Shown here: positions 11,877-55,682 of the stretch, in pieces
Layout: each line of letters begins with the position of its first letter
How positions within the stretch are numbered: the first letter of the stretch is position 1
Assembly: GCA_963762115.1 (NCBI GenBank)
Contig: CAVXJH010000006.1
Coordinates: 521,662-585,661 of the forward strand
DNA length: 64,000 bases
Reading direction: 5' to 3'
From: Candidatus Babeliales bacterium
GTDB lineage: Bacteria > Babelota > Babeliae > Babelales > JANWKD01
Made by a program: the position numbers and the translations under genes
The notes under the pieces: model-generated
Told to the model about the DNA's origin: nothing
Database searches by the model: none
Seen by the model: the letters and a program-made list of their open reading frames with translations, nothing else

Positions 11877-11957
11877 ATGAAACCATTTTGTGATTAATGA
11901 AATTTGATATAAAGTGTGAATTTGATGCATATAATAAACAATTTTGAAAGTAATTAA

Positions 11958-12160
11958 AATAATCAGAATTGTCATTGCGAGGAGCATTGCGACGCGGCAA
12001 CCCAGCTTATAAAATTCTATTTATTTCTTCATATAAAATGGATTAAAAAATATTTATTAATTCAATAATTTTTAGCTTTTTTAAGGGTTTCATTTATTAG
12101 AACATTATAATCTGGGTTCCCACGGCACAACGTGCCTCGGAATGACAATTCTGATTATAT
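11958..12160. repeat. REP/RPE-like palindromic element (inverted arms GTCATT...CCAG / CTGG...AATGAC)
   Basis: aatcagaattgtcatt at 11961 is the reverse complement of aatgacaattctgatt at 12141; related copies at ~61717 and ~63659. Confidence 0.75.
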
Positions 12161-12201
12161 TGTTTCTCTCGATATCAATAATACTGCATACAGAGTTACA
12201 A

Positions 12202-17661: not shown

Positions 17662-17768
17662 GCCAAGCTCCTTTATTAGAATTTTTTTGATTATAATCAA
17701 GGAGTCTAAAGAATAGCAACCCTTCGCGTTTATTACGTAATTTTATGAAATTAAGCAATAAGGGATAT

Positions 17769-18153: not shown

Positions 18154-18295
18154 TTATTTGAGGAGGGGATATTTTTTAAATCCGATGAGGCGGCATTCAG
18201 GTTGTGGTGTGATCTTGAAAGTATCATGTACTAATTGTTGCATTGTTTTTGCGACTGCAATAATATCAGCGCTCGTTGCTTGATTAGCAATAATA
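18154..18295 (-). pseudogene. murB: Duplicated 3' end of murB
   Basis: Aligns to 19861..20008 including the stop codon; 6-nt deletion; mostly synonymous differences. Confidence 0.9.
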
Positions 18296-18361
18296 CATAG
18301 TAATAAAAAACTTTGCTCTTATTACTATTATAAACTATGCCCTTAAAATCGCTTGTTATTC

Positions 18362-29961: not shown

Positions 29962-30428
29962 GTAGTTCATTTTTGAAAAATTGTGCAACATTAGGGTATA
30001 TTGGTTATCTTCCTGCTCCAGGCACTGTTGCATCTTTGGTTACGGTTCCTCTTGCGTTCTTACTGCATCAGTATATTCCTTCATGGTATTTAGCGACAAT
30101 AATTATTAGTTATTGCATAGGCCATGTCATTGTTAATAATGTTCTTGGACTCTTTAATGAAGCTGATCCTTCGCAAATAGTTATTGATGAACTGGTTGGT
30201 TGTCTTATTGCATTATATGCGTTGCCATTTTCATGGCCAGTTTGGTTGCTCGCTTTTGTGTTATTTCGCTTTTTTGATATTTATAAGTTTGGCCTTGTGG
30301 CTTGGTCAGAAAAATTACCTGGTGCCACGGGCATTATGGTAGATGATGTTATTGCGGGCGTGTTAAGTAACCTTTGTGTGCGCTTAGTGCTTATGGTTTT
30401 TAGTGGTGTTTTGTATGGCTCTCTATAA
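29958..30428 (+). CDS. pgpA: Phosphatidylglycerophosphatase A
   Basis: PAPGTVAS, DPSQIVIDELVG, FRFFDIYK, GIMVDDVIAG. Confidence 0.95.
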   Translation: MSSSFLKNCATLGYIGYLPAPGTVASLVTVPLAFLLHQYIPSWYLATIIISYCIGHVIVNNVLGLFNEADPSQIVIDELVGCLIALYALPFSWPVWLLAFVLFRFFDIYKFGLVAWSEKLPGATGIMVDDVIAGVLSNLCVRLVLMVFSGVLYGSL

Positions 30429-31080
30429 TTTTTTTGCGAATTTCGCTCAACTGACAAAAAATTTTTTCGTTCCCTCTTTTTGTGTGCATTGCAAAAATTG
30501 GTTAGAACAACCAACCATTTTATGCGTTTCGTGTCGTGCGCTTATTCATCCTATAGTTTCTGCTCGCCTTGAAGTGAATGCTGCAACTACTATGACGGTG
30601 TTTGCTGCCAGCAAATATCAAGATCCACTTAAATCGATTATTTTGGCAAAAGGGCGATTCGATTGTTTGGCAAGCAAATATATGGGACAACTTCTTTGGG
30701 AATTGACGCCAGTGAGCCATGCATCATTTGATTATATTATCCCTATTCCTTTACATTGGCGGCGCTTTGCCTATCGTGGGTATAATCAAGCAACCATGAT
30801 GGCGCATGAACTTGCCAAAAAAAGCAAGCAGCCCATGATTGAATTGATACGGCGAAAACAATACACCGTTTTTCAATCGGTGCTAACCACATCAGAGCGA
30901 AAAGATAATGTTAAAAACGCATTTGTTTTGCAGCAAGGTGATTTATCTGAGTATACGGGTAAACATTTTCTTCTTGTTGATGATCTTATGACAACCGGTG
31001 CAACGCTTAAAGCTGCTGCACAGTGTTTGTTGCCACTCAAGCCCGCTTCAATCACGGCTGTTGTTCTGTGTCGGACATAA
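30415..31080 (+). CDS. comF: ComF-family competence protein (Zn finger + PRTase)
   Basis: CVHC..CVSC, PIPLHWRR..RGYNQA, LLVDDLMTTGATL. Confidence 0.92.
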   Translation: MALYNFFANFAQLTKNFFVPSFCVHCKNWLEQPTILCVSCRALIHPIVSARLEVNAATTMTVFAASKYQDPLKSIILAKGRFDCLASKYMGQLLWELTPVSHASFDYIIPIPLHWRRFAYRGYNQATMMAHELAKKSKQPMIELIRRKQYTVFQSVLTTSERKDNVKNAFVLQQGDLSEYTGKHFLLVDDLMTTGATLKAAAQCLLPLKPASITAVVLCRT

Positions 31081-38468: not shown

Positions 38469-38998
38469 TTAATGTTTTGATAGTTCAAGTTGTTCTTTAA
38501 CCAAAAAATTTCTAAATCGTTGAATAATATGCGCTAAATTTTCTGCAATAGAATGGTTATTGAAATTATATTCATCATCAGAAGCAGGAGGCATATAAAT
38601 TAAGAACTCATTCATTTCGCTAGGATGATCAAAGTCCCAATATACACTTTCAATTGCATCTATAAGTTCTCTATTACTATAATTTTTATCAAGTAAGGAT
38701 TGTAATTTTATAAAACGCCATTTTTTTTTTCAATGTTCCACTCTTTAGAATTTTCTTCTATTTTTATATTTAATTCTTCCAATAATTTTTCTAATTTATC
38801 ATTGATTTCAAAATCATCTTTTAATCCATATGCTAATTCTATGATATTAATATTATCTAATTTATAATGTTCAGATAAATATTGAGATGCAAAATCTTCT
38901 ATGAATTTACTGTTAATTAAATTTAATTTTCTTCCTATGTATATCGTTTTCCAAGAAATAGAAATATTATTTTTTTTAAAATCATTTAGCTGAATCAT
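38469..38998 (-). pseudogene. DUF2247-like immunity protein, frameshifted in a 10-nt homopolymer
   Basis: ATG overlaps the toxin stop; adding one A at 38721-38730 gives EKKKWRFIKL...IESVYWDFDHPSEMNEFLIYMPP...SKH*. Confidence 0.75.
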
Positions 38999-41900
38999 TT
39001 TTTTCCTGGCCAAATATTAGGTTTTCCTGTTATGATTCCATCTTTAATGAATAATCTATGAACAACGCCTTTTGAAGGATCGGGATGCACAATCCATTCA
39101 AAAATACCTTTTTCACCATTTAATGATCCTTCTATTTGATATAAAATTTTTCTTACTGTTTCTTTGTCATATAGATCGAATTTTTGAGCATATTCAACAT
39201 AATTATCAATTATATCACTAAATTTATGATAAGAATCTAATTTTAATGCTTTGCCACTTCTAATATTTTTAGTGACTTCATTATCAATAATTCGTAAGAC
39301 ATTATTTTCAGTATCAAGTGTATGTGATAAATCTTTTGAGAAAGCTTCATTACTATAATTTTTAGATTTTTGAGCTTGTCCCTCATTCATAGATTGTAAT
39401 AATGCAGAAGTTCCTTGAATGGCAGTTGTACCAAATGGTGTTGATCCAATAATCTCTCCAACGCCTTGGACGACTCCAGCAGCCTCTGTTGCCAATTCTT
39501 GTATTAAAGCAATATTCTGAGGTACAGCAAGCATATTTCCACCAGACATACTCGGCGGTATAAATTCTCCCATAGAAATTATGCAGTCGCCCATTACTCG
39601 GCTAATTAATTTAGCGCCACTGCCTAAGGCTTTATTTGCAGCGAGGTCAACAAGTAATTTTGCAACAAATTCTTTTTTATGTTCAATGGGTAGTTCTTTC
39701 CAATTTTTAGAAAATGCATGAACTGCTTCATTATATTTTTTGCTAAACTCAAATGCTTCTTTTTGCGTTGCTCCAAAAGCACTTATATTGTTTTTGCTAT
39801 AATCAACGACACAAGAACAGAGAAAATGCCCTAATTCTCCAAAGTCTTTAGCAGCATTCAATAAATAATTTCCTGGATGAGTTATTGTTTCATGCGCATA
39901 ATCGCCAATTTCTTTTAATGGCAAATCGGTAAAAACAATTTTAAAACAGTCCTTTATAACTTCTTCTACATTTTCTGCTAAGGTTAACTGCGTATCTCGA
40001 TTTAGTTTTATTGTTTCAATTTCGCGTAACGCGGATTCTTGTGATGATGCTAAATATTCATGAATAATTTCATTTTTCAATTCACCATTATCAGAATTCC
40101 ATAATTTGTCATTCTCCAGTAATTCTCTCATTAATGAGCGTTCATAAATCATGTTTAAATCAGGTTTTTGCTCAGGAGATGTCTGGAATTTTTGCATTTC
40201 ATGAGAACTGTAAGATTCGGTTTTACCCGTATGCAACAATTCTAAACTCTGTCTGAAGAAGGGAAGATCTTCTTGTGATTTGGTGCGACACATTTCGGGT
40301 CGATTTAATACATCCAATTCACGGACTATTTCTGCAATAGTTCTATTCAATGGTACTTGTGATGTTGCTGAATGATCTAATGATTCGAATTCTTTATTTA
40401 ATTTTAGTAATAGCGTTTGTAATTGATCTATGCGTTTTTCTGACCCACCTTCTTGTTTTAATCTATTGATTTCATTTGATAGATTAGTGCGAGCAGCAAG
40501 AGTTCGACGAGATATGTTTTCTTTTGCAACAAGATCTTCTGATAAAGAGAAATTGTTATTTTGTAAAATTGTTTTCTCATTTTCTGTAGGTTTTATATTT
40601 TGAGGAATTGCGTTAGAATTTGCAGTAGATTCTGATCTTCGTACTATTGGACCACTTAAGGTTTGCAGTCGATGAGCAATCCTTTTACTTGCCTCAGTTA
40701 TTTTGCATAGATCTTCAAATGTATTCACTTCATGAAATTGTTTATCTATGGCGAGTAGATCAGACTGATTATCCTTGATAAACTTTCGTGGGGCATTTTT
40801 GTTTTGTAGATTGTTGGTTGTATCTACTAAATTGAGCACAGTCTTCATTACATTATCTTGAGCTCTGAGTTGCATTTGATTTGGTTGATCTAAAATTAAG
40901 CTACCGCATTGAAGAATTGTTGTATTTTTTTTGCCTTCTAATGCATCGACTATTGCTGAGGCTAATCCTAAATGTAGCTCTTTATTCAAACCTTCAGTGG
41001 AACAAGCTTTTGCGATGTAGCCAACGGCATTACGGTGTGCCTGTAACATATGTAATGGTTCTTGTGAAGCAAGTACAGCAACTTTAAGTAAGAGCACACG
41101 TTCTTTAAGATGTTCTGGTTGGATAATTGATGAGGGTATAATGATATCTTTGAATATACATTCATCAAAATTATAAAGGCGAGGTAATCCTCGTTGATCA
41201 AAAAGTGGTTTGATAGCTTCATAATATTTGGGGTCATTTTGTTTTTCTGTTAAGACAGAAATAAAATGATCTATAACTTTCATAGGTTGCTGTGAAGCCG
41301 CATAAGGAGCTACTTCATGCAATAAATCCATAATTTCCAGATTTGCAGAGATATTTAATGGTTGCAAAATATGCTTTGTACAATATTCTGTAGAAAGCTC
41401 TGCATAAAGTTTGCTTATAATGAGATAATCATCTTCTGGTGAAGATGAATTGTACATGACATGATCTTTGTAGCAATCAACTATATATTTTGCTGCTTCT
41501 AATTGATGATCCTCGAATAAGTGGACTACATTTCTTAATTCTTGATTTTGAATATTTTCCAATACTCGTTGTCGCATTTCAAGTGGATTAGAAGGATAAA
41601 GATCCGATTTTTTATGCAGTTCTTGCTTCATCCAAAATGCATTCTCTTCATTGCAAATTCTTTGAAAACAAGGTCGATTTTCTTTTTTAAAGTTTTCAAT
41701 TACCTGCTTATATGCATTAGGCATCTCTTTTTTTAAATAATTTGTTATGGTACGAGCTATTTGATAATGATCTTCGGCGCTTAAGGAAGCTTTTAATGAA
41801 CCATCGGGCTTGCATAAAATATAGGTCGATTGATTAATAGCATTTTGAAGATGTACGTTTCTTTGTGTTAAATCTTGAGTTATTCCTGGCACAGAAAAGG

Positions 41901-42276
41901 TAAGATTGGTGAGTGCGAGTGTAGATCGTGTTGATTGAGTTTGAGCTGCTTTACTGAGTGCATTTGCATAATTTACGACCTGAGCATGTATTTTAAGAGT
42001 TTCAGCAAATTGTTTTTGTTGTTCAGCTGAAAACGTATGTGTTTGAGCTGGTAATGCTGCATAGGGAGTGTTTGTGCGATGGCGGAGTTGATCGTATGAA
42101 GCTTCGCGCATCATAAAATCATTAAGTGAATTACTTAATGATGAAGTATTATTAGTGTTATAGCTAAAATTGCTATTTATTGTTATAAGGCTTCTTCTAT
42201 CTTGATCTTCCATGCATTGTGAGTTTTGGAAAATATGAAGAGTAAAGAATAAATTTATAAAAAATAATTTTTTCAT
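38995..42276 (-). CDS. Large secreted polymorphic-toxin-like protein with C-terminal toxin domain
   Basis: Signal ...NSQC|ME; Gly/Ala-rich pre-toxin segment; tip RSGKALKLDSYHKFSDIIDNY..LYQIEGSLNGEKGIFEWIV..HRLFI..G.P. Confidence 0.8.
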   Translation of the reverse strand: MKKLFFINLFFTLHIFQNSQCMEDQDRRSLITINSNFSYNTNNTSSLSNSLNDFMMREASYDQLRHRTNTPYAALPAQTHTFSAEQQKQFAETLKIHAQVVNYANALSKAAQTQSTRSTLALTNLTFSVPGITQDLTQRNVHLQNAINQSTYILCKPDGSLKASLSAEDHYQIARTITNYLKKEMPNAYKQVIENFKKENRPCFQRICNEENAFWMKQELHKKSDLYPSNPLEMRQRVLENIQNQELRNVVHLFEDHQLEAAKYIVDCYKDHVMYNSSSPEDDYLIISKLYAELSTEYCTKHILQPLNISANLEIMDLLHEVAPYAASQQPMKVIDHFISVLTEKQNDPKYYEAIKPLFDQRGLPRLYNFDECIFKDIIIPSSIIQPEHLKERVLLLKVAVLASQEPLHMLQAHRNAVGYIAKACSTEGLNKELHLGLASAIVDALEGKKNTTILQCGSLILDQPNQMQLRAQDNVMKTVLNLVDTTNNLQNKNAPRKFIKDNQSDLLAIDKQFHEVNTFEDLCKITEASKRIAHRLQTLSGPIVRRSESTANSNAIPQNIKPTENEKTILQNNNFSLSEDLVAKENISRRTLAARTNLSNEINRLKQEGGSEKRIDQLQTLLLKLNKEFESLDHSATSQVPLNRTIAEIVRELDVLNRPEMCRTKSQEDLPFFRQSLELLHTGKTESYSSHEMQKFQTSPEQKPDLNMIYERSLMRELLENDKLWNSDNGELKNEIIHEYLASSQESALREIETIKLNRDTQLTLAENVEEVIKDCFKIVFTDLPLKEIGDYAHETITHPGNYLLNAAKDFGELGHFLCSCVVDYSKNNISAFGATQKEAFEFSKKYNEAVHAFSKNWKELPIEHKKEFVAKLLVDLAANKALGSGAKLISRVMGDCIISMGEFIPPSMSGGNMLAVPQNIALIQELATEAAGVVQGVGEIIGSTPFGTTAIQGTSALLQSMNEGQAQKSKNYSNEAFSKDLSHTLDTENNVLRIIDNEVTKNIRSGKALKLDSYHKFSDIIDNYVEYAQKFDLYDKETVRKILYQIEGSLNGEKGIFEWIVHPDPSKGVVHRLFIKDGIITGKPNIWPGKK

Positions 42277-43886
42277 CACACCCATTTAAATGGCCAAGAT
42301 ATAATGTTATAAGCTTTCTCGCAAATATCAGATCGGTTTTCTATAATAGGATAGGCTAATTTTGCTCCATAAGAGATGCATCCTATAATAAAAGCTGCAT
42401 TAGGATTTATGTCTTTTAAAATAGTTGATACTCCTATTCCAGCATCGCAAGCCATTTGTACGTGAGAGTTTCTCATTTGCTCATTATGAAAATCACTTGA
42501 TTGTTGTTTACTTTCATTATGTAATTGATTGGTTTGTGCTAAGCTTTGTCCTTGCAGTATTTTTGCCTGATCTAACCCTTCAGTATGAAACTTTTGTGCT
42601 TGAGCAAGACTTGCAAGATGAAATTCTTTTGCCTGTGCTATCGATTCTCGATGAAATGAGGCATTTTGAGCAAGGCTTGCAAGGTGCATTTCTTGTTGTG
42701 CTTTTGCTGCCTGTATTTGCATGCAATAATTAAATCCAAGAGTTATTACAAGAGGGATGCTGATTTGTAATGCTGGCATAATCGCGGGTTTAATAAATTC
42801 ATACGTTTTTGTTTGCCAGGATTCATGAATGCCGTTATTATTTTTTATATAATCCATGGCTTGTAATAATTCTTTTTTTGTTAATTGTAATGTAACATTT
42901 TGATCTTGATTGCCTGCTTTTTTGATATCGATACTTTCTATTATTTCTTCGAACATTCTATCAAAATCACGTGCTGCAAAGCCATTTGTTTTTTTTGCCA
43001 GGTAATTGATATCACGCTGTGTTAATGAAATTGTTATTAAGCAGCTAATTTTTGCAATATGGTAGTTAATATTGCTTATTCGATCATAGAAATCTGGTAA
43101 TGTAATTTTATAACATCTGTTAGAAAGACGTTGTCTTAGTTGTTTGGGTAATCCATTTAATTCATTTGCAGTGCCGATAAATAAAATATTTTTTGTTTCT
43201 GTAATTTCATCTAATAGTTGCCAGAGAACGCTTGCTGCATTATTATCATTTTTGTTTTGATCATGTTTTATGATTTTTTGCATTTCATCTAAAATAATAA
43301 CATGAGGATCATTTAAATCTTGTATTCTATTAAAAGTATCATTAAGTTTACTTTCTGCTGAATTTTGATATTGATTGCCAAGTGTTGTAGCTTTTATGAT
43401 GGTGTATTTTAATTTACAATATTGTGAAATTGCAATTGCTAAAGTAGTTTTTCCAACACCTGGAGGTCCTACAAGAGTAATGAAAGGTGGTTTGTCATAG
43501 CGTTCTCTTTGATATAAATCTGATTTAGAAGCGACTCTTGCTTTTACTGTTTCTATAAAAAATTGTAATTTTTCAGGAGAATCATCAATATATTTTTGTA
43601 TTCTTTCCTCGTCAAATTTTGTGTTTCTTTGGCGAATAGAACCTGCCATTTGTTGGGCAGTGAAATCATCTTTAGTATTTAAGTTAAAGTATTGATAGGC
43701 ATTATCGACTGGAGGGATTTCTTTTTCTGTTTGATCATCATTTTGTGTATGAGGAGGAAGCAATCTTGATGGTTTTTCTTTAGTCTGCTTTTGTTTAGGT
43801 ATGGGGAATCGTTGATCTTCTTCCATTGCATGTGCAATAAAAAAACTTAAAAATATACTTACTATTAAAAATGATTTGTGCTGCAT
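42276..43886 (-). CDS. Secreted AAA+ ATPase with TM helix and 11-residue repeats
   Basis: Signal ...IAHA|ME; GPPGVGKTT, IILDEMQ, IGTAN, LPKQLRQR. Confidence 0.88.
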   Translation of the reverse strand: MQHKSFLIVSIFLSFFIAHAMEEDQRFPIPKQKQTKEKPSRLLPPHTQNDDQTEKEIPPVDNAYQYFNLNTKDDFTAQQMAGSIRQRNTKFDEERIQKYIDDSPEKLQFFIETVKARVASKSDLYQRERYDKPPFITLVGPPGVGKTTLAIAISQYCKLKYTIIKATTLGNQYQNSAESKLNDTFNRIQDLNDPHVIILDEMQKIIKHDQNKNDNNAASVLWQLLDEITETKNILFIGTANELNGLPKQLRQRLSNRCYKITLPDFYDRISNINYHIAKISCLITISLTQRDINYLAKKTNGFAARDFDRMFEEIIESIDIKKAGNQDQNVTLQLTKKELLQAMDYIKNNNGIHESWQTKTYEFIKPAIMPALQISIPLVITLGFNYCMQIQAAKAQQEMHLASLAQNASFHRESIAQAKEFHLASLAQAQKFHTEGLDQAKILQGQSLAQTNQLHNESKQQSSDFHNEQMRNSHVQMACDAGIGVSTILKDINPNAAFIIGCISYGAKLAYPIIENRSDICEKAYNIISWPFKWV

Positions 43887-45196: not shown

Positions 45197-46168
45197 ATGA
45201 ATCGAGCTATGAAAACTACCTTTTTCTCATTATTTAGTATGTTAGTTCTTTTTTTTGGTATAAAGGAACTTTCAGCAACAATTAAAGAATCAAATGAGCT
45301 TCCGACTGATGTGCCTACTCAAGAAATGATGGTAGAACAATCTGTTGAAGATAATGATCGTTTCTTGATCAATGAAGTTGCCGTTGTTGTTGATGGACCT
45401 GAGCGTAGATTTTATGTAACCACTCTTGATTTAGAAACCCCAAGCTTTGATGGGAGAATTCCGTCGCTTGATGATATCGTTGATGAAGAATTGATATATC
45501 AAGATGCTCTTAAGCATAAAATTCCTATTACTGAATATGCTCAAAAACATATTCAAAGTATCAAAAAACAGCATAAGCTCTCAGATGAAGCTTTTACTAA
45601 AATTTGCGCGAACGCAGGGTTAGATCAAGCTTCTGCATTAGAAAAATTTGAAAAAATGGGTGCTGGAAACACCATGGTGCAACATAAAGCAGATAGTTTT
45701 GTAGCTGAACATGAAGTAAAAGAATATTATGAGGCAAATCCAATTAGTAAACCCGCTAAATATCAATTGCAAGTTGGCTTTGTTCCTTTTGATAGAAATA
45801 AAAGCGTAGATCAACAAAAGAGCGAATTAGAAAAAACATTGCGTTCCAATCCGGAAGCAATTCATTGGAATGAGCCGTTTTGGCTTAAAGAAGTTGATAT
45901 TGCTGAAGATAAAATGTACGTAACTAAAATGTCGGTTGGTGATATTTCAACGCCGCAGGCAACTGATGGTGGTTTTGAAGTTCTTCGCTTAAAAGATAAA
46001 AAAGATGCTTATGTTGTTCCGCTGGAAAAACGTTATGGTGAAATTGTTCACACATTGCGCATGCCAAAATTGCAGGAAACTGTTGAACAATATAAAAAGA
46101 CTTTGCGTGAATCCAGCTCAATTGTTGATATTAGAAAGCCGCAGGAAGCACGTCATATTTGTGATTAA
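45197..46168 (+). CDS. SurA-like periplasmic chaperone/PPIase
   Basis: INEVAVVVDG, VDEELIYQDA, VKEYYEAN, MSVGDISTP..GGFEVLRL. Confidence 0.7.
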   Translation: MNRAMKTTFFSLFSMLVLFFGIKELSATIKESNELPTDVPTQEMMVEQSVEDNDRFLINEVAVVVDGPERRFYVTTLDLETPSFDGRIPSLDDIVDEELIYQDALKHKIPITEYAQKHIQSIKKQHKLSDEAFTKICANAGLDQASALEKFEKMGAGNTMVQHKADSFVAEHEVKEYYEANPISKPAKYQLQVGFVPFDRNKSVDQQKSELEKTLRSNPEAIHWNEPFWLKEVDIAEDKMYVTKMSVGDISTPQATDGGFEVLRLKDKKDAYVVPLEKRYGEIVHTLRMPKLQETVEQYKKTLRESSSIVDIRKPQEARHICD

Positions 46169-47364
46169 TTATTACCGAATACCTTTATTGCCATTCCATG
46201 TAAATCTTTTAATGCAATGTTGTTATTAAGAGTGCGTTGCATTAATGAGGAACTTTTCAATGCAGGATTTATTTTTTCGGCCTTTTTTTTCTTACATGAT
46301 GCACTATATTCCTGTCTTTTTTGAATGCTTGCTTGAGTTAAATCTTGATTAAAGTAATGCATTCCTAATTGTAATGTTAATGGTATAGCGATCAGAATGG
46401 TATGTTCAATGTAGGGCTTTATGGTTTTATATGTTGTTTTGTACCATGGTTTAAATCTTTTATCGGTATATGTTATAAAAGTAATTGCTTGTTCAAAATC
46501 ATATAGTGTCGGTGTAATTGTTGGTTTGTAATAAGTACACCGTTCAGAAGCATTATAATTCCCTTGTATTACCATTTCTTCTAAATCGTGTGGCGTAAAA
46601 TTTTTAGTTATTTTTCCTAATATGTTGACTTCACATGGGGTTAGGCACGGTGAATGCAAAGCAAGATGATAATTAATAATCTTTTCTCTTTTTTTTTGAT
46701 TGGGCAGGGAAATGGCGTGAGCATTGTATATATGCTTTCTAATCTGCTCGGGTAAATTTTTTCGTTCATTGGCGGTGGCAATAATCAAAAAATTTTTTTT
46801 CTTTTTAAATGTATCTAAAAAACTCGATAAATAATCTGCATCGTAATCTTCGTTAATCATTTGTAAACCATCTAAAATAATTACTTTCGGTTCTTTATTT
46901 TCTTTCAAGGGGCCAAGAATATTTATAAGATCACTTTGACCTGAATGATTATATTGATGTACTAATGCTGGGAATGAGACAAAGGTATAGCGCAATCCAC
47001 ATTTTAAGGCGATTGCTTTTGCCAACGAGGTTTTTCCTGCTCCAGAAGGGCCAACTAAGAGATGCATATTAGACAAAAATGGTATTGCTTGCAATAAATT
47101 ATTAGGTTCGATTCTTTTGGTGATAATTCGGATAATTTTTTGAATTTCTTTTGGACTCTCCTCAATAAGTTCATCAATTAACTTTTCATCTAATTGCTCT
47201 TCTTCTGAGCAATATTTTTCTTGATCTTCCATGCAGTAAATAATATTAGTAGTTAATGATGAAAAAAGAAGCATTATGAAAAAATATTTTTTCCATAGAT
47301 TACTTTGAGGTAAAAATTGTCCTGAGATAAATTTTATTTGGAAAAAATATGATTGAAGCTGCAT
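46165..47364 (-). CDS. Secreted AAA+ ATPase paralogue with degenerate Walker B
   Basis: ...IIYC|ME; GPSGAGKT; VIILDGLQ (Glu missing); IATAN; C-terminal hydrophobic helix. Confidence 0.8.
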   Translation of the reverse strand: MQLQSYFFQIKFISGQFLPQSNLWKKYFFIMLLFSSLTTNIIYCMEDQEKYCSEEEQLDEKLIDELIEESPKEIQKIIRIITKRIEPNNLLQAIPFLSNMHLLVGPSGAGKTSLAKAIALKCGLRYTFVSFPALVHQYNHSGQSDLINILGPLKENKEPKVIILDGLQMINEDYDADYLSSFLDTFKKKKNFLIIATANERKNLPEQIRKHIYNAHAISLPNQKKREKIINYHLALHSPCLTPCEVNILGKITKNFTPHDLEEMVIQGNYNASERCTYYKPTITPTLYDFEQAITFITYTDKRFKPWYKTTYKTIKPYIEHTILIAIPLTLQLGMHYFNQDLTQASIQKRQEYSASCKKKKAEKINPALKSSSLMQRTLNNNIALKDLHGMAIKVFGNN

Positions 47365-47689
47365 TATTAAACCTTGTTGTTTAAAGATACGAGAGAAATA
47401 TAAATTGCAGCAATTTTAGTCTGGTTCTAAGTAAAAGTAAACAAGAAATGGTGATATAAAAAAGTTTGTACAAATCAAGCGCTATGGTTGATATTAGAGA
47501 ATCATAGAGGGTAAGCAATTTTTTCGCCATCTTATTATTTCTTCCTGAAAGAAATTGATGATTGACGGTAAAGAATTTTTTCTGTTTGATGTAGGAATGG
47601 CATATTTGGAAGGCTTTTGTCAAAATGGTTAAAATAAGCCATAATTAAAGGGAATATAAGAGGTTATTCTTTTTTTGTGGGGTTATAAA

Positions 47690-48334
47690 ATGAAAAAACT
47701 ATGTATTTGCTTAAATGAATTAGAAGTAAAAGTCTTTGTAGGTATTTTATTATTACTAGGTTTTCCTTACTTGTTATTTTGGCTCAATAAAGATCTTAAT
47801 TATTCTAGTTCTGATTATGCTAATATTTTAACGTCAGCAGCTACTTTACTAACTGCTGTTTATGCCACTTTTTTACTCGTGCCGAATTACTTTAAGCAAA
47901 AGAGAGCTGAAAATTTAACTGAAGCTGCTAAAGAAGTATTGAGCATTTTGACAGAAACTGAAGTAGAGATAAAAAAACTTTTCTTACTTAAAGATGAAAC
48001 TATAAAAAGTTTTTACAATGATTATGCAAAAGAGCATATTAAAGTTCAATTTAAACTATCTTTTTTGCTCAACAAATTACGAAATGGTTTATTGTTAGTA
48101 AGAAAAAAAGTTGATTTAGTAAAAAATGAAAAAATACCCAACTTTGTAGAATTAGTTGCAAGTTTAGAACAGGTATTGAGTCAAAGGCCTACAAGTTATC
48201 CAGCTTCTTTTATAACAATAAATTTTCTTAGTGAATGTGGTCTTTTAAACACAGGTAAAGATTCACTTGATCTCGGTAAGCTCAAAGATCTCAGAGAGGT
48301 ATTGTTATCAATTTATGAGTTAGACGAGCAATGA
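47690..48334 (+). CDS. Two-TM membrane protein, first gene of nuclease-helicase island
   Basis: Two N-terminal TM helices; stop overlaps the helicase start (ATGA). Confidence 0.7.
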   Translation: MKKLCICLNELEVKVFVGILLLLGFPYLLFWLNKDLNYSSSDYANILTSAATLLTAVYATFLLVPNYFKQKRAENLTEAAKEVLSILTETEVEIKKLFLLKDETIKSFYNDYAKEHIKVQFKLSFLLNKLRNGLLLVRKKVDLVKNEKIPNFVELVASLEQVLSQRPTSYPASFITINFLSECGLLNTGKDSLDLGKLKDLREVLLSIYELDEQ

Positions 48335-51120
48335 AAAAATCAAATTTTAATCAAATAATTGAACATTTTTCATCTTTCGCTCCTGAAGTAAAAGGAAGAA
48401 AATTTGAAGTGCTTTGCAAGTGGTTTTTAGAAAATGATTTTACTTATTCAGAACAAATCAAAAAAGTTTGGCTTTGGCAGGAGTGGCCTGGTAACTGGGG
48501 CAGGGATAAGGGCATTGACCTTGTCGCAGAAACTTATAGCGGTGAATTATGGGCAATACAAGCAAAAGCTTATGATGAAAGTTATTACATAACAAAAGAA
48601 GACATCGATACATTTTTAAGTGAGTCTTCTCGTAAGGATTTTTCATTTCGTCTTTTAATTTCAACGACAAATAATATTGGCCCGAATTCTCGTGAAGTAC
48701 TCCTTGCTCAAGAAAAACGGGTTGGTCTTTGTCTTCGTGATAATTTAGAATTGTCTGATCTTGATTGGTCATTAATTCTAAAAAATTCAGGTGAAAAATT
48801 TAAACAAGATCCAAAAATCCCACGTAAACATCAAGAAGCTGCAATTAATGCCGTTATGAAGGGCTTTGAACAATCTTCTTATGGTCAGATTTATATGGCT
48901 TGCGGTACAGGGAAAAGTTTGATTGGTTTATGGTTAGCTGCAAAATTAAATGCCAAAAATATTCTTGTACTAGTCCCTTCTATTTCTTTAGTAGCTCAAT
49001 TATATAAAGAATGGTCGAGTAATGCTGGTGATTTTACTTTTGATCCTATTTTTGTGTGCTCAGATCCTACTGTAAGTAAAGCTAATGATGATTGTATGTC
49101 ATTTGATTCTATTGATCTTGGCTTTCCGGTTACCACTAATGTTGATGAAATTTTAACTCAATATTTTCGAAACACTTCTCGGTCAAAAATTATTTTTGCA
49201 ACGTATCATTCTTCTCCAATTATTGCTCAAGCATGTTCGCAAGAATTTTCTTTTGGTTTTGATCTTGCCATTGCTGATGAAGCCCATCGATGTGCTGGTG
49301 CTACAACGAGCGATTTGGCAACAATCGTGGATAAATCTGCTATTAGAACGAAGCATAAATTATTCATGACGGCGACGCCAAAAATATTTTCAAATCATGT
49401 TAAACAAAAGACACAAGAAATTGCTTATGAAATTGTTTCGATGGATGATGAAGAAAAATTTGGCCCAATATTTTATAAATTACCGTTTTCTGATGCCATA
49501 AAAAAAGGACTTTTGAGTGATTATCAAGTGCTTATTTCAGTTATGGATAATGCAACATATAGGGGATATGCAGAACGGGGACGGTTTGTGTCTTTTGAAA
49601 ATCATGAAATCGATGCTCGCACATTAGCGAGTCAACTTCTCATTGCAAAAGCTATAAAAAAATTTGATCTAAAAAAAGTCATTAGTTTTCATAGTCGTAC
49701 AAAGGCTGCAAAAGATTTTATTAAGACATTGCCAAAAGCATTACCATTATTACTTGAATCAGAAAAGCCTGTTATTGCATACCAAGCGATACTTTTTGGT
49801 GATATGCCACAATCAGAACGGCATAAAATTTTAAAGCAACTTGATGAAACATCTGATGGTGCAGCTTTAGTTGCTAATGTTAAATGCCTTTCTGAAGGAG
49901 TTGATGTTCCTTCTCTTGATGGTATTGTATTTGTTGAACCAAAAGGTTCTGAAATAGATATTATACAAGCAGTAGGTAGAGCAATCAGAAAATCTTCAGA
50001 CAAAACATTGGGAACTATCATTATTCCCTTGTTTGTTGATGGTATGTTAGATGAAAATCTTGCATTGGATCAATCTTGCTTTAGATCAATTGGAAAAGTA
50101 CTCAGGTCTCTTAGAGCACATGATGATATAATTGCAAAAGAGCTCGATAGCATACGTTTGGAATTAGGAAAAAAAGTTTATACAAGACCATCCAGGTCAA
50201 GTAAAATTTTTTTTGACATATCCATTGAACTTAGTAGTGACTTTAGCGAAACTTTAAAACTTAAGATTTTAGAAAATATTGTTGAACAATGTTCTTCTGA
50301 ATGGAATTATCAGTTTGAGTTACTTAGGGAATTTTATCGATTAAATAATAGATGGCCAGCTCAACACGAAGAGTTTCCTATTGAGAATAAGCTTGGCATG
50401 TGGTGTAGTTATCAGCGAACACTCTATAAGAAAAAATTTCTAAGAAATGAACAAATAAAAGTCTTAGATTCAATTGGGTTTGTTTGGGATTTATTAAGTG
50501 CTGTTTGGGAAGAAAATTTTTTATTATTAAATAGCTTTAAAAAAGTCAATGGTCATTGTAATGTTCCTGCAATATATTTTGAAAATCAAACACTTGCTAC
50601 ATGGGTATCTGTGCAACGCAGAGCATTTAAAAAGGGATTATTATCTCTAATGCAGTTAGAAAAGTTAAATTCGATTGGGTTTGTTTGGGACATATTAAGT
50701 GCTGTTTGGGAAGAAAATTTCTTATTATTGAATAGCTTTAAAGAAGCAAACGGGCATTGTAATGTTCCTGCAAGATATCTTGAAAATCAAATTTTGGCTA
50801 CATGGATTTGTACACAACGTTATGATTACAAGAAACATAGAATGTCTCAAGATCGTATTAACAAGCTTAATTCTATCGGATTTATTTGGGACTTGATTGA
50901 TAAGAGTTGGGAAAATAGTTTTTTCAAATTATGTAAATTCAAGGAAATCAACGGGCATTGCAATGTGCCAAAACGATATGCTAATGATCCTTCATTGGCT
51001 AGATGGGTAATGACGCAGCGAAAATCATATAAGGATGGAAAGTTATCTGAAAAGCGTATTAAAAAATTGAATGAAATATGTTTTCAATGGTATCAAAAAC
51101 GAGGAATCTCTAATATTTAG
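48331..51120 (+). CDS. Mrr-like nuclease + SF2 (ResIII/DEAH) helicase + four helicase-associated (HA) repeats
   Basis: GIDLVAE..WAIQAK; MACGTGKS; ADEAHR; MTATP; EGVDVP; QAVGRAIR; four W...GHCNVP..LA.W...QR..GF.W units (201-bp period at 50470/50671). Confidence 0.9.
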   Translation: MKKSNFNQIIEHFSSFAPEVKGRKFEVLCKWFLENDFTYSEQIKKVWLWQEWPGNWGRDKGIDLVAETYSGELWAIQAKAYDESYYITKEDIDTFLSESSRKDFSFRLLISTTNNIGPNSREVLLAQEKRVGLCLRDNLELSDLDWSLILKNSGEKFKQDPKIPRKHQEAAINAVMKGFEQSSYGQIYMACGTGKSLIGLWLAAKLNAKNILVLVPSISLVAQLYKEWSSNAGDFTFDPIFVCSDPTVSKANDDCMSFDSIDLGFPVTTNVDEILTQYFRNTSRSKIIFATYHSSPIIAQACSQEFSFGFDLAIADEAHRCAGATTSDLATIVDKSAIRTKHKLFMTATPKIFSNHVKQKTQEIAYEIVSMDDEEKFGPIFYKLPFSDAIKKGLLSDYQVLISVMDNATYRGYAERGRFVSFENHEIDARTLASQLLIAKAIKKFDLKKVISFHSRTKAAKDFIKTLPKALPLLLESEKPVIAYQAILFGDMPQSERHKILKQLDETSDGAALVANVKCLSEGVDVPSLDGIVFVEPKGSEIDIIQAVGRAIRKSSDKTLGTIIIPLFVDGMLDENLALDQSCFRSIGKVLRSLRAHDDIIAKELDSIRLELGKKVYTRPSRSSKIFFDISIELSSDFSETLKLKILENIVEQCSSEWNYQFELLREFYRLNNRWPAQHEEFPIENKLGMWCSYQRTLYKKKFLRNEQIKVLDSIGFVWDLLSAVWEENFLLLNSFKKVNGHCNVPAIYFENQTLATWVSVQRRAFKKGLLSLMQLEKLNSIGFVWDILSAVWEENFLLLNSFKEANGHCNVPARYLENQILATWICTQRYDYKKHRMSQDRINKLNSIGFIWDLIDKSWENSFFKLCKFKEINGHCNVPKRYANDPSLARWVMTQRKSYKDGKLSEKRIKKLNEICFQWYQKRGISNI

Positions 51121-51147
51121 TTCTTGGTGTTTAAATAAAGGCGTTGA

Positions 51148-52230
51148 ATGGATAATGCAAAGACTAAGGAATATTTTTTTGATGGGGCTTCATATCAACC
51201 AACAATTATTGGGGAAGTTGATGAATTAATCGAAAAAATAGAATTATTAAAAACAAAATTTCCTTATGTCGCAAAGTTTTTTTTAATAATTTTAGAGAAA
51301 AATTTATCTAAAAATTTTTCATTAGAAGATTGGTTAATTGTTACGCCTTATATGCTTGTATGGCAAGAAAATAATGAAAAATTAAGTTGGTTTGAAAGGC
51401 TTTTTACCGAGTTTGCCGATATTTATGAGGAAGAGTGGGATAAATGGGTTCATGAAATTGTTCAAAAAGATAGTACGACACATGCGATTTACGATCGTAT
51501 TTATAGTTATCTATTACATTTATATGCAGCGATATATTTAGTTAGACAAGGTTTTACAAATATTCAATTTCCTCCTCATTCCCAAGAAAAAGGTGTTGAT
51601 ATTGTAGCTTTTTTTAATGAACAAACTTTTGCTATAGAATGTAAATTTGTAAAAACTTCTAAAAAATTTGATTCTTTTTTTTGGAGAGCAAACCGTGCTT
51701 TTAGGGATTGTACTTTAGGTAATGATTTTTATGAATTTACTAAGCACTTATTAATTAGCAAAAATTTTATATTTCCTCCTGGAGAAGAAATAAGAAGTCT
51801 TTCTCCTTTGCATTGTACTGCTATTAAATTTTTAATTAAAGAAGTTTATAAAGATCCTTTTGCGCAACATAATATGTCTTTTAAAGATGAGGATGAACAA
51901 ATTTTAACCTATAAATATAGTCCATCATTACCTGTGGCATCTCTTGATTTTGAACAAGAATATGCTGATAAAAAAGCATTATACCTTTTTGACATCATTT
52001 TATCTGCTACTTTAGATAAAGCGGTAAAGCAGCTTAATGATTTGAAATATAGCAATCATAGAAAAATTATTTTTTTAGGTATTCAATTAGATGAATTGTT
52101 TTTGATTGATTGGACTTATCCATCAATAGAAGAAAGAAAATTATTAGCTAAATTAAAAATGCATTATAAGCATAATATAAAAATAATATTTAGCGAAGAT
52201 GTAGGTTTTTCTATGGCTAGATATCTTTAA
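51148..52230 (+). CDS. Putative PD-(D/E)xK nuclease
   Basis: KGVDIVAFFNEQTFAIECK motif; KAVKQL helix. Confidence 0.6.
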   Translation: MDNAKTKEYFFDGASYQPTIIGEVDELIEKIELLKTKFPYVAKFFLIILEKNLSKNFSLEDWLIVTPYMLVWQENNEKLSWFERLFTEFADIYEEEWDKWVHEIVQKDSTTHAIYDRIYSYLLHLYAAIYLVRQGFTNIQFPPHSQEKGVDIVAFFNEQTFAIECKFVKTSKKFDSFFWRANRAFRDCTLGNDFYEFTKHLLISKNFIFPPGEEIRSLSPLHCTAIKFLIKEVYKDPFAQHNMSFKDEDEQILTYKYSPSLPVASLDFEQEYADKKALYLFDIILSATLDKAVKQLNDLKYSNHRKIIFLGIQLDELFLIDWTYPSIEERKLLAKLKMHYKHNIKIIFSEDVGFSMARYL

Positions 52231-52242
52231 AAAGCGAATTAG

Positions 52243-52278
52243 GCCTTCGGCAGAGTAGGGTGAAGCCCGCCGGAGGCA
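52243..52278. terminator. GC-rich hairpin between convergent units
   Basis: gccttcggc...gccggaggc followed by a T-run. Confidence 0.55.
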
Positions 52279-52283
52279 TTTTT

Positions 52284-52479
52284 TTAACACATCTCTTCAC
52301 ATTTCTCATTCAATGCTTCTTGCTGCAATTGCATAGCCTTTTCAAGGAGCCGCTCTTTATCTGCTTTTAAATCATTTTTGCCATCAAGGTAGGTTGAAAC
52401 GATTGTCTTTAAGTCCATAGAAATGTTCATGATTGTTCGCTTTTCACGCGTTTCAGTGACATGAATGAGTGTAATGCTG
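52284..52479 (-). pseudogene. sbcD: Duplicated 3' end of sbcD (196 nt)
   Basis: Collinear with 54438..54633, stop codon in the same position; ends EALNEKCEEMC* vs EALNEDLEETS*. Confidence 0.92.
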
Positions 52480-52536
52480 TCAATTCATACATTACGTATG
52501 TTAAAGCCGCAAGAAGCAAGGCATGTTGGTGATTAA
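52480..52536 (+). pseudogene. Duplicated 3' end of the SurA-like gene
   Basis: KPQEARHVGD* vs KPQEARHICD* at 46136..46168. Confidence 0.8.
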
Positions 52537-54305
52537 TTACTGCCAAATACTTGTATCGCCGTTCCTGATTCTATTTGTGGAATAGCAAGTGCTTTTTCAA
52601 TATTTTTAATTGATATTTGTTCAATTTCATTGTTGGCAAAAATATGCGGTGGTTGATGATTTTTTGTTATAAAGTCTATGAACTCTGAACGTTGTTGTTT
52701 TTTTCGTTGCATTGCAAAAATTTTCAATGCTAATTGAGTTCGTTTCATAGCAGCTTGTGTTCTAGAGTATTGGAAAATATTCTTATTAATTTGATTATCT
52801 GTTCCGGCTAGAATTTCTTCTGTTAGGTTTCTTTGATGTGTTATGCTTAGAAGGCGCTTGAACCTATGAGAGAAAAATTCAGGATCTATTAGATTTTTTT
52901 TGTAATATTTCTCAATTTTTGTAAGGGTTATAGATATCGTTTTTGGATCATTATACCCTTTATCTTGTAAATGAGTTTCATCTAGAAAATTACTATCAAA
53001 AGGTTTATTGTTATTTAATTGTGGTTTAATATGATTCTTAATGAAATATTTCGCAGCTTTTTTTGGATCAATATTTTTTTGAATTAGAGATTGTATTATT
53101 TCTTGCTGATCAGGAGAAAATGTTGTTAAAATAGGATCTTTAGTTAATTCGATTAGACGACCTGTTTTCCAATTTTTTGTTGCATTATCTTTTGTTGCAT
53201 TATCTAATGATAATTTAAATAGTATTTGATCTGCATTAATGTTTTCTTTTCTTGAAAAAGTATTTTTTGGTTCGGTTGTAGCGTCCCATTCTCTTAGCCA
53301 ATCCTTAATAAGTTCTGAGTGTGAAGAAGAAAGTTTCTTAATTAATTTTTCTAATTCTGAGATAGTGCCGCTTGCTCTTTTTTCTTCAAGATCTTTTTTT
53401 ACAACATCTTTACAAATACTAACGAGGCTTTGAAGTCCATAAGGAATCTCTTTAAGTGTTTTAAGCTCTCTTTTCTCTTCTTCTGAAAATAGAGTTCCTT
53501 TGTATTTTCTTGATTTATTCTGTGGATGTGAAGGGTCTCCTTTTAAGGCTCGAAAACAAAATATGTCATGAGGGGTGATAGTTCCTGCTTTTATTAACAA
53601 TCTTAGTTGCAACTTAACTTCATCAATATAAAATTGTAAAAATTCATTTTTTATTGTTTCATCGTTGTTGCAACGGAAAAACTCACCATCTCTTTTTGGT
53701 GCAGTTGGAATTTCTTGATTTTGAACAATTGGATCAAAGATCTTAGCAATATGTTCAGGTTTTTTTTTTAAGAGGAATGCAACATTGTCACTTATTAAAA
53801 TCTTTAGGATCTTTATTAAACCATTGCCATTACCAGGATAGTTACTTTCTTTCGCAGAGTTACGCATATTAACTTCTTGCTCATTTATAAATACGATTTG
53901 TTCAATGACTAAGCGATGAATTTCATCAATCATCTCTTGATCGTAACCTTGAGATTCTAATGACTCTTTTTCTAGTATAGCTTCAAAATTGCCACAATTA
54001 CCTATGAGACTCGGCATATTTAGTTCATAAAATGCATTCGCAATTTTTTGATCGATTTCTTTTTTAAGTCTTTTTTGTTCTTGAGGATCAAATGTTGCTA
54101 ATCGCGCATCAGTTTTTAGCTGTTGCAGTTTGCTTTTATCAAAAAAATACCAGTCATGTCTTGAAGCAGCTTTTAATGATTCCTCAAATTCTTTTTGGTC
54201 TTGTGATTTTTGACTTGAACTTTCCTGTTCAAATGTATGTTCTTCTTCCATGCCATAGAGCATTAAAGGCATTAAAAAAAGTAAAACGAGTAATTTTTTA
54301 TTCAT
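52533..54305 (-). CDS. Secreted helical protein with internal BC-box-like motif
   Basis: Signal ...MLYG|ME; LQSLVSICKDVV; C-terminus GTAIQVFGSN resembles GMAIKVFGNN of 46165..47364. Confidence 0.75.
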   Translation of the reverse strand: MNKKLLVLLFLMPLMLYGMEEEHTFEQESSSQKSQDQKEFEESLKAASRHDWYFFDKSKLQQLKTDARLATFDPQEQKRLKKEIDQKIANAFYELNMPSLIGNCGNFEAILEKESLESQGYDQEMIDEIHRLVIEQIVFINEQEVNMRNSAKESNYPGNGNGLIKILKILISDNVAFLLKKKPEHIAKIFDPIVQNQEIPTAPKRDGEFFRCNNDETIKNEFLQFYIDEVKLQLRLLIKAGTITPHDIFCFRALKGDPSHPQNKSRKYKGTLFSEEEKRELKTLKEIPYGLQSLVSICKDVVKKDLEEKRASGTISELEKLIKKLSSSHSELIKDWLREWDATTEPKNTFSRKENINADQILFKLSLDNATKDNATKNWKTGRLIELTKDPILTTFSPDQQEIIQSLIQKNIDPKKAAKYFIKNHIKPQLNNNKPFDSNFLDETHLQDKGYNDPKTISITLTKIEKYYKKNLIDPEFFSHRFKRLLSITHQRNLTEEILAGTDNQINKNIFQYSRTQAAMKRTQLALKIFAMQRKKQQRSEFIDFITKNHQPPHIFANNEIEQISIKNIEKALAIPQIESGTAIQVFGSN

Positions 54306-54437
54306 ATTGTAACTTTTATTTTATTAATTATTTAATCTATTTAAAGCTAAGTTTCATAATAGAATATAAAGCAAAAAATAAAACTATTCAAGGCGCAAGG
54401 GCTTTTAAGGGTGAAAATAGACAAAAAAAGGGGGCTA

Positions 54438-55682
54438 TTAAGAAGTTTCTTCCAGATCTTCATTTAAGGCTTCTTGCTGCAATTGCATAGCCTTTTCAAG
54501 GAGCCGCTCTTTATCTGCTTTTAAATCATTTTTGCCATCAAGATAGGTTGAAACGATTGTCTTTAAGTCCATAGAAATGTTCATGATTGTTCGCTTTTCA
54601 CGCGTTTCAGGAACATGAATGGGAGTAATGCTGACTAAGTGCATAGCCGATGAGCATGCTTGTAAAATAGCCTGCAAATTTACGGTATCTTTTTTGTGCA
54701 AGGGAACGTGATATAGAATTTTTACAACCGCATTATCAATATGATGTTTTTTGATTTCATTAAGCAGCTGAGTGGTTTGATCGCTCTCTTCTTTGAGTTT
54801 TACTTCGATTTGAATAAAGGGCCGTGTGGGTGTTTTGATGAATTCATGATGGGTTGTTCCTTTTTTTTCAATGGTGACCGAGCAAAAACCTTTTTCTTCT
54901 TTTCGTTCGCCAAAATCAATGCGTTCTGGTGAACCGGAATAGACAATTGCCGGATAGCCGTTTGGATTTAAGTTTTGATAACGATGTAAATGACCAAGGC
55001 CAACATAATCAAAGGGTTGTATGGCTAATTGTGAAGGTAACAATACAGGATCATTACCATAAATTGCCCGTTTTTCAGAGCCGGAAAAAATACCGGAGCT
55101 CACGGTGAGATGGCCAGCAAGAACGGCAGGAATTGAATGATCAAGCTGATTGGCAAAATGTTGCACAATTGAACTGACCGATGCTGCAATATGTTCTGTC
55201 AATACGGTAGCAGATTTATAAGCATGCATTGCAGAAATGGCAATATTAGAACGACTGGGCCATGGAATGCCGACAATTTGCACAGGACCACTTTTTGTTT
55301 CCAAGGTTATGGCAGCAGGCTTTGCCATAACATGAAATCCATGCAGGGGTAGATCGCTGAACAGATCTAGCGTGTTTGCTTTGCCAAAACTAAGAGGGTT
55401 ATCGTGATTGCCAACAATGATAACGAGCGGTATGTTAGCTTGTTGCAGGCGTAAAAAACATTTAAGGAGTAGCCGTTGTTGTGTTGGCGTTGGATTAATT
55501 GTTTTATAGGCATCACCAGAAAAAAGAAAAAAATCTACCTTTTCCTTGAGTGCATAATCGATACAAAAATCCAAAGCTTTTTGAAAATCTAACAGTCGTG
55601 TGTGAATGCCGGTTGCGGGATCAATTTTGCCATAGTTCTCCATGCCAAAATGAATATCGGCTGTGTGTATAAATCGTATCAT
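54438..55682 (-). CDS. sbcD: SbcD/Mre11-family nuclease subunit
   Basis: HTADIHFG, SGDAY, VGNHD, YVGLGHLH, YSGSPERIDFGE. Confidence 0.95.
   Translation of the reverse strand: MIRFIHTADIHFGMENYGKIDPATGIHTRLLDFQKALDFCIDYALKEKVDFFLFSGDAYKTINPTPTQQRLLLKCFLRLQQANIPLVIIVGNHDNPLSFGKANTLDLFSDLPLHGFHVMAKPAAITLETKSGPVQIVGIPWPSRSNIAISAMHAYKSATVLTEHIAASVSSIVQHFANQLDHSIPAVLAGHLTVSSGIFSGSEKRAIYGNDPVLLPSQLAIQPFDYVGLGHLHRYQNLNPNGYPAIVYSGSPERIDFGERKEEKGFCSVTIEKKGTTHHEFIKTPTRPFIQIEVKLKEESDQTTQLLNEIKKHHIDNAVVKILYHVPLHKKDTVNLQAILQACSSAMHLVSITPIHVPETREKRTIMNISMDLKTIVSTYLDGKNDLKADKERLLEKAMQLQQEALNEDLEETS

Follow-up and report, generated by a model that had tools for sequence, protein, structure and literature searches.

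In the displacement arrays described at rhs loci and at type VI secretion system (T6SS) loci of V. cholerae, a new module is placed behind a conserved anchor, brings a copy of the anchor's end with it, and displaces the previous end, together with its neighbour, in the downstream direction. According to the cited sections, other strains are the source of these modules, integrases play no part, and the arrays spread by ordinary recombination (PMC2935791, PMC5361080). The minimal mobile elements of Neisseria, in the part of PMC3787668 cited here, are variable genes between conserved flanks, which carry no mobility genes and reside in hosts with competence genes. Here we describe a comparable arrangement in a 64-kb window (the whole stretch of DNA analysed) from a Babeliales genome, in which the slot between a surA-like gene and sbcD holds two sets of genes separated by a fusion of the 3' ends of both flanking genes. 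With a probability of about 0.5, we read this region as two alleles of a variable surA-sbcD slot joined head to tail, the newcomer having been added rather than swapped in by way of one-sided homology. Orphan 3' ends of this kind were found 24 times in the genome, behind 18 host genes at about 16 loci.

The window corresponds to G000:C6:521662-585661, G000 being a metagenome-assembled genome (MAG) of 1.53 Mb in seven contigs that is 95% complete with 3.1% contamination. It was compared throughout with G001, a single-contig Babeliales relative of 1.34 Mb. In addition, we used 100 sbcD loci (L numbers), 261 genomes for the donor search, 41 genomes for gene presence, and the contigs and records of two sequencing runs, namely X1, which may be the source sample, and X2, whose population is about 93-97% identical to the window. 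A cultured member of the phylum is a parasite of a protist and, in the cited part of its description, 44% of its proteins carry signal peptides (PMC6561590).

Anatomy of the surA-sbcD stack

The stack consists of the following features, in window coordinates:

45197-46168 (+): surA-like parvulin peptidyl-prolyl isomerase, left anchor, full copy (Pfam Rotamase_2, E 1.9e-7); adjoins sbcD in 62/100 related loci
46047-46168 (+): surA 3' segment, parent of the orphan (46047-46063 and 46135-46168; the intervening 69 nt are absent from the orphan)
46165-47364 (-): slot gene 1, AAA+ ATPase of 399 aa with a signal-peptide-like N-terminus (Pfam AAA, E 1e-16); predicted to be exported
47675-48334 (+): cargo gene 1, predicted membrane protein of 219 aa, 28.6% GC; no Pfam, PADLOC or NCBIfam family match
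48331-51120 (+): cargo gene 2, 929 aa, Mrr-type nuclease, superfamily 2 (SF2) helicase and four HA domains (Pfam Mrr_cat_2, ResIII, Helicase_C, HA)
51148-52230 (+): cargo gene 3, 360 aa, 26.8% GC; one 60% homologue
52284-52479 (-): orphan sbcD 3' end of 196 nt; retains the stop, and its central part is nearly the same as in the full gene
52471-52483: junction of the sbcD and surA stubs, seam at 52479/52480 (+/-3 nt)
52480-52536 (+): orphan surA 3' end, lacking 69 nt of its interior
52533-54305 (-): slot gene 2, 590-aa orphan protein with a signal-peptide-like N-terminus; its only homologue is itself
54438-55682 (-): sbcD, right anchor, full copy (TIGR00619, above cut-off); present in 40/41 genomes

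From left to right, the order is therefore surA-like gene (+), AAA gene (-), three plus-strand genes, sbcD stub (-), surA stub (+), 590-aa gene (-) and sbcD (-), and the stop codon of slot gene 1 overlaps that of surA. An earlier analysis of the letters alone (the sequence-only reading) had proposed that a unit of surA-like 3' end, effector and sbcD 3' end occurs twice with a junction at 52479/52480, and sequence comparison confirmed both repeats. The three plus-strand cargo genes of the first unit (47675-52230) had been left out. The sbcD stub (52284-52479) aligns with 54438-54633 over 196 nt, with 17 nt differences, no indel and an identical stop position. The six synonymous changes listed previously are real, but the seven non-synonymous codons were missing from that list; the full count is 7 synonymous and 7 non-synonymous changes in 66 codons. 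These differences sit at both ends of the stub and leave a 142-nt centre with a single change (0 of 100,000 shuffles), and 4 changes fall in the 24 nt next to the seam. The surA stub keeps the residues KPQEARH by way of CAG/CAA and CGT/AGG, exactly as had been noted. Its parent segment, however, does not start at 46118 as had been claimed but at 46047, since an upstream piece encoding HTLRM (52484-52500) matches 46047-46063 at 14/17 nt with 3 changes, all of them synonymous (shuffle p-value of 0.0004). A deletion of 69 nt, flanked by imperfect repeats of 13 nt, brought the HTLRM and KPQEARH pieces together. The seam itself adjoins an imperfect 8/10-nt match between the parent genes surA and sbcD, which is 2 nt out of register.

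What lies between surA and sbcD varies among relatives. Among the 100 sbcD loci, which include a few near-duplicates, the 62 with surA represent species and genera, not strains; 32 of them have a gap of at most 200 nt and 30 contain other DNA, mostly unrelated genes with signal-peptide-like starts. The slot of the closest relative, L073 (~83% nucleotide identity), is empty, with a gap of 7 nt. At L072:11233-19087 the slot consists of five paralogous genes with predicted exported products and has a decayed sbcD stub after the first. Short or inverted self-matches are present at the slot in L019, L026, L068, L080 and L090.

The designation of the two slot proteins as 'effectors' is a prediction from their signal-peptide-like N-termini. 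Their homology is confined to the last 10 residues (7/10, BLASTP E 0.13), which agrees with the sequence-only reading, and this C-terminal motif occurs in no other open reading frame (ORF) of the genome. Because the two genes share only these residues, the body of one slot gene was probably exchanged ahead of a retained tail. The 590-aa gene has a stretch of 84-90 aa in common (36-38%) with the G001 slot gene at the equivalent position and is present in run X2 at 90-97%; it probably represents the resident allele. The reciprocal best match of slot gene 1 (46165-47364) in G001 is L001:9144-10532, on the opposite side of the prsA-surA pair, and at the corresponding position beyond prsA-surA the window holds a different AAA paralogue (42276-43886). 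AAA genes seem to move from one slot to an adjacent one.

The three cargo genes span 4.6 kb (47675-52230) within the first unit, at 27-33% GC. Cargo gene 2 is a candidate defence gene, the N-terminal part of which matches PADLOC REase_MTase_IIG (E 8e-133); no methyltransferase domain was seen in it with Pfam. In cargo gene 3 a PD-(D/E)xK-like motif can be made out by eye, and the product may be a nuclease. This gene has weak matches in 5 of 260 other Babeliales genomes, and its structure model, made without an alignment, was uninformative (predicted local distance difference test, pLDDT, of 35). The whole cassette can be regarded as a candidate defence system, of which 2 of the 3 genes lack a PADLOC family.

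Orphan 3' ends across the genome

A genome-wide self-search for duplicated 3' ends, as the sequence-only reading had suggested, was performed with three 120-nt segments (start, middle and end) of each of 1217 ORFs of at least 120 aa, which were compared with the genome up to 20 kb away. Genes with more than one paralogue and matches inside same-strand ORFs were excluded. This resulted in 26 matches of 3' ends downstream of the gene, 12 of 5' ends upstream, 5 of 3' ends upstream and 2 of mid-gene segments. The two mid-gene matches stem from one repeat-protein region, so that no credible mid-gene control match exists, and the 12 upstream 5' matches are mostly repeats or paralogue starts, with about 3-4 resembling true 5' stubs. 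Two downstream 3' matches were discarded, one to a repeat protein and one being a weak antisense match. The remaining 24 orphans are all 26-200 nt long. A Pfam family was assigned to 16 of the 18 hosts, which include priA, rsmG, maf, gpsA, truA, tamB, aspS, murB, rodA and a Na+/H+ antiporter gene. Two priA-like genes were observed (G000:C1:6344-8317 and C6:291701-293680); the first of these, which lies on a contig of only 10 kb (C1) and is accompanied by two orphan ends, may be part of the contaminating fraction.

In 6 of 7 aligned junctions a copy of the right flank abuts the orphan, with overlaps of 1-13 nt, mostly imperfect, or a 4-nt gap. The unit of such a stack is therefore flank-content-flank. 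The second stack that had been proposed within these 64 kb proved to be real:

18154-18360 (-): orphan murB 3' end (~18154-18295), running into a right-flank copy (18285-18360)

It lies between paralogous J-domain genes (16444-17700 and 18362-19828), and its orphan shows 5 synonymous changes and 1 non-synonymous change. A second seam of two genes, a fusion of gpsA and PASTA ends at G000:C3:561773-561919 (L185), lies between two ankyrin-repeat genes, of which G001 holds the second only.

The tamB locus (G000:C6:76729-81446, L188) has three orphan 3' ends with 14.5 synonymous and 1.5 non-synonymous changes. Two of these share a 30-nt upstream seam, yet differ from each other in 6 synonymous codons and 1 non-synonymous codon. 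Since these two stubs share their seam but differ almost only synonymously, seams appear to be re-used and stubs to be rewritten by working alleles. The tamB units contain a nucleotidyltransferase/HEPN-type pair, a gene of 219 aa and a gene of 862 aa, and the best G001 match of the latter is the gene in the surA-sbcD slot.

Genes inside stacks have orthologues in G001 in 7 of 30 cases, compared with 760 of 1258 genes elsewhere (p-value of 8e-5), and 24 of the 30 have signal-peptide-like starts versus 641 of 1258 elsewhere, as judged by a crude rule of our own and not by a trained predictor. The gene past the last orphan is the direct neighbour of the host gene in G001 for 5 of the 15 hosts with an orthologue there, and nearly so for 3 more. 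In G001 itself, 8 orphan matches were found in 1.34 Mb (ratio of non-synonymous to synonymous rates, dN/dS, of 0.12). One of them, at G001:C1:121966-122085, is the 3' end of an 895-aa gene that, from its C-terminal motif, we take to be secA; its 22 synonymous versus 3 non-synonymous changes in 69 codons suggest a quite divergent partner. Five other genomes that were sampled gave 1-3 matches of downstream 3' ends per 200-260 kb, the hosts of which were unchecked.

Over the ungapped segments of all orphans (548 codons), 93.5 synonymous and 68.5 non-synonymous changes were counted, which corresponds to a dN/dS of 0.156. If a stub were neutral after duplication and the gene changed only synonymously, 34-48% of the changes should be synonymous, depending on transition bias (kappa), whereas 58% were observed. 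This decay null was rejected with p-values from 2e-9 (kappa 1) to 9e-3 (kappa 16). The dN/dS stayed between 0.12 and 0.18 when hosts were left out one at a time, and a single orphan per host gave a p-value of 0.002 at kappa 4. The codon pattern of the pooled stubs shows an apparent input from working alleles of other strains. For the pool, this speaks for the idea of the sequence-only reading that the stubs are former working alleles. The more general idea of a recombination-driven route for accumulating such genes between conserved ones is supported by the 24 orphans behind 18 genes, by the empty slot of L073 and by this divergence of a purifying-selection type.

Several other features of the window and the genome were noted. 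The window positions 22029-26065 contain tandem paralogues 2.1 kb apart (74-98% nucleotide identity), the second of which is broken by a stop near 24610. A long imperfect inverted repeat with 93-nt arms, together with related short copies elsewhere (11956-12161, 24029-24070 and 61755-61831), resembles a dispersed palindromic repeat. The gene at 38708-42285 encodes 1096 aa that begin like a signal peptide and match no Pfam family, and the small ORF that comes next overlaps it; we take this layout to be reminiscent of a polymorphic toxin and its immunity gene, and the G001 counterpart has a different end. An mreB-like gene near the contig end (59079-60087) is split over several frames, probably by sequencing errors, and a short ORF in G000 was seen for 10 of 468 conserved G001 genes.

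Origin of the stack

Each viable model of the stack comprises one homologous and one non-homologous join. In the route that we favour, DNA from another strain, probably entering by natural transformation, would recombine homologously on the surA side, where the anchor is long, while its far end, inside sbcD, would be joined without homology to the resident surA tail, so that the incoming allele is added. The left unit (AAA gene, cargo and sbcD stub) would then be the newcomer and the 590-aa gene the resident. This one-sided route is favoured because strand exchange is expected to stall where heterology sets in, and the stubs start at just this point. The event would be old, as the stub ends and the surA stub are ~17-20% diverged; gene conversion may later have rewritten the centre of the sbcD stub, and the surA stub would have lost its 69 nt. 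RecA-dependent loop-out should remove all stacks except those whose repeats are short and diverged, and this would account for the stub lengths of 26-200 nt. An existing seam could be re-used by ordinary unequal recombination to add units, as at tamB, and the outcome would be a slow, enzyme-unspecific accumulation of accessory proteins, predicted to be exported, behind housekeeping genes.

The genome encodes ComEC, DprA, a ComF-family protein, RecA, Ku, a LigD primase-polymerase domain and two ATP-dependent ligase domains. The gene on which the sequence-only reading had relied is located as follows:

30403-31080 (+): comF-family gene (TIGR00201, E 2e-28, below the curated cut-off)

Its presence and the lack of an integrase in the slot or nearby are both correct, but comF says little by itself; ComEC, DprA and RecA provide better support for a predicted competence. 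The genes for Ku, the LigD primase-polymerase and the two ligase domains are scattered (C3:255590-256405, C3:216786-217553, C3:76282-76884 and C6:1705-2262). Ku was found in 12 of the 41 genomes searched. Downstream 3' matches numbered 1 each in 200 kb of G009 and G038, in which no Ku was detected, versus 3, 1 and 1 in the Ku-positive G037, G014 and G003, an underpowered comparison of 200-260 kb per genome in three Ku-positive and two Ku-negative samples that gave no contrast. Because matches also occur in the two genomes where Ku was not found, non-homologous end joining (NHEJ) is a candidate only.

A number of observations weigh against the one-sided addition of a working allele. For the surA-sbcD slot alone, former working alleles could not be demonstrated, as about 7/16 sbcD changes are synonymous, with no significant excess (p-values of 0.28-0.57), and two changes near the seam alter prolines that are kept in L073 and G001, which reads as decay. 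In the pooled data, the kappa-4 null was exceeded in 12 of 18 hosts (sign test p-value of 0.12), one host is plainly neutral (1 synonymous versus 15 non-synonymous changes), and the synonymous excess does not fix the order of events. A looser alignment gave a dN/dS of 0.30; this estimate was replaced, because the alignment had run into unrelated flanks. At tamB the unit shared with G001 adjoins tamB itself, contrary to the polarity rule. No donor with the AAA gene and cargo between surA and sbcD was found among the 100 sbcD loci and 261 genomes, and a search of genome contigs with surA gave no match. Moreover, none of the contigs or reads of X1 and X2 bridges 52479/52480. Lastly, in the cited part of PMC3240628, experimental homology-facilitated illegitimate recombination (HFIR) usually deletes recipient DNA, and duplications of 109-950 bp arose there from circularisation followed by a single crossover.

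The absence of a bridging read, the 3.1% contamination of the MAG and the position of the seam 11.5 kb from a contig end bearing the frameshifted mreB-like gene would all fit an assembly chimera of two single-cassette strains. We nevertheless regard a chimera as highly improbable. A 151-nt record of X1 equals 52482-52632 with 0 differences; it starts 2 nt to the right of the seam and spans the deleted surA stub and the end of the 590-aa gene. This joins the deleted stub to slot gene 2, and a working surA without its conserved C-terminal segment is unlikely. X1 also matches pieces of slot gene 1 and of the helicase with 0 differences, the orphans contain stops and decay, and equivalent scars exist in the single-contig G001. 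X2 contains the 590-aa gene and an sbcD end, after which come the letters found downstream of the full sbcD copy; its lack of cover over slot gene 1 and the cargo was not counted as evidence, and neither X1 nor X2 yielded a joint of surA with slot gene 2. Just as little credence can be given to site-specific elements that entered the 3' ends of genes, restored these ends with sequence of their own and have since been deprived of their integrase, with duplication of attachment (att) sites and tandem accretion. Orphan 3' ends downstream of the insert are typical of site-specific integrative elements, and one tamB seam was re-used. However, the 18 targets are unrelated and have no common junction motif by inspection and by BLAST of the 200 nt upstream of each orphan, duplication affects both flanks, and of the recombinases in the genome, two of the tyrosine and two of the serine type, all are found on contigs C3 and C5, not on that of the slot.

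Two other routes appear unlikely to us, but deserve more weight. Donor DNA that ended within a flanking gene on either side may have been circularised, for example by Ku and LigD, domains of which are encoded, and integrated by one crossover to give L-X-R'/L'-Y-R. The fusion of a right-flank copy to a host-gene stub at 6 of 7 aligned seams speaks for this. As cited above in part, such duplications made up 56 of 60 E. coli clones obtained with a linear one-sided substrate (PMC3240628), and rhs tip displacement has been modelled with a circular intermediate (PMC2935791). On the other hand, neither end of the donor fragment could lie more than ~250 nt from the edge of the slot, which leaves little homology for the crossover, and the matches in the two genomes where Ku was not found also stand against it. 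Transforming DNA, in addition, enters the cell single-stranded. Alternatively, an intragenomic tandem duplication may have come first, giving a full gene plus a short flank copy, and a foreign allele may then have replaced one copy by double crossover. This sequence of events, which we consider similarly doubtful, would also produce the divergence of working alleles, would account for the mosaic sbcD stub with its near-identical centre, and is in line with the paralogous genes in several stacks (murB, maf, aspS, nhaC) and with small duplications without flanking repeats that, in the cited sections, arise in transformed pneumococci (PMC3784515). It would, however, require a pair of rare events at every one of ~16 loci, identical copies are unstable when newly duplicated, and slot genes 1 and 2 have no homology beyond 10 aa. 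The four changes in the seam-proximal 24 nt of the sbcD stub imply that the centre needs conversion anyway.

A bolder extension of one-sided addition, which we put forward very tentatively, is that in these intracellular parasites an arsenal of exported proteins is built by additive transformation, in which competence brings in alleles from co-infecting strains, RecA anchors one end, Ku/LigD seals the other, and any housekeeping tail can seed a self-extending array. If true, genes could be gained quite generally without an integrase, by a route the scars of which could be counted and dated in any genome.

Comparison with displacement arrays and related systems

The underlying mechanism is not new; what is added here is the census and the selection test, and a genome-wide account of such stacks, or of one in this phylum, was not found in the open-access literature. 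Displacement arrays are known from toxin loci, and the recombination route invoked for them is seldom seen under laboratory conditions. An equivalent signature behind 18 mostly housekeeping genes in a 1.5-Mb genome provides enough cases for a statistical test, makes the accumulation of strain-specific genes without mobile elements testable by a simple scan, and implies substantial exchange of DNA between strains in the obligate intracellular Babeliales.

In terms of other known systems, both the integrase beside the insert and the common core across sites that mark integrase islands are missing here. As in HFIR and in circularisation with a single crossover (PMC3240628), the stack would combine one homologous with one non-homologous join. 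A microhomology of 3-10 bp would be expected of an HFIR junction; the seams here overlap by 1-13 nt, mostly imperfectly, and at the surA-sbcD seam 8/10 nt match, with a register shift of 2 nt. While HFIR generally removes recipient DNA, here the flanks are duplicated and the resident gene is kept. Transformation merodiploids of S. pneumoniae likewise are tandem duplications with novel junctions, but those described in the cited sections of PMC3784515 are mostly large, repeat-mediated copies of the cell's own DNA, whereas the units here carry different genes and their stubs are diverged alleles. The variable genes between conserved flanks, without mobility genes and in a host with competence genes, are shared with the minimal mobile elements of Neisseria, which, as far as the cited part of PMC3787668 describes, exchange by replacement, while here two cassettes are kept side by side with stubs of their flanks.

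A relic of the anchor's 3' end downstream of the added modules, a feature of the rhs and T6SS displacement arrays, is present here as 24 orphans of 18 genes. The anchors of those arrays are toxin cores and their modules pairs of toxin tips and immunity genes; here, with anchors such as the surA-like gene, sbcD, aspS, murB and tamB, neither applies. Furthermore, anchor and cargo remain separate genes, a single seam often contains duplicates of both flanks, and the arrangement occurs genome-wide. By analogy, the stacks would appear to work like displacement arrays located at slots that resemble minimal mobile elements.

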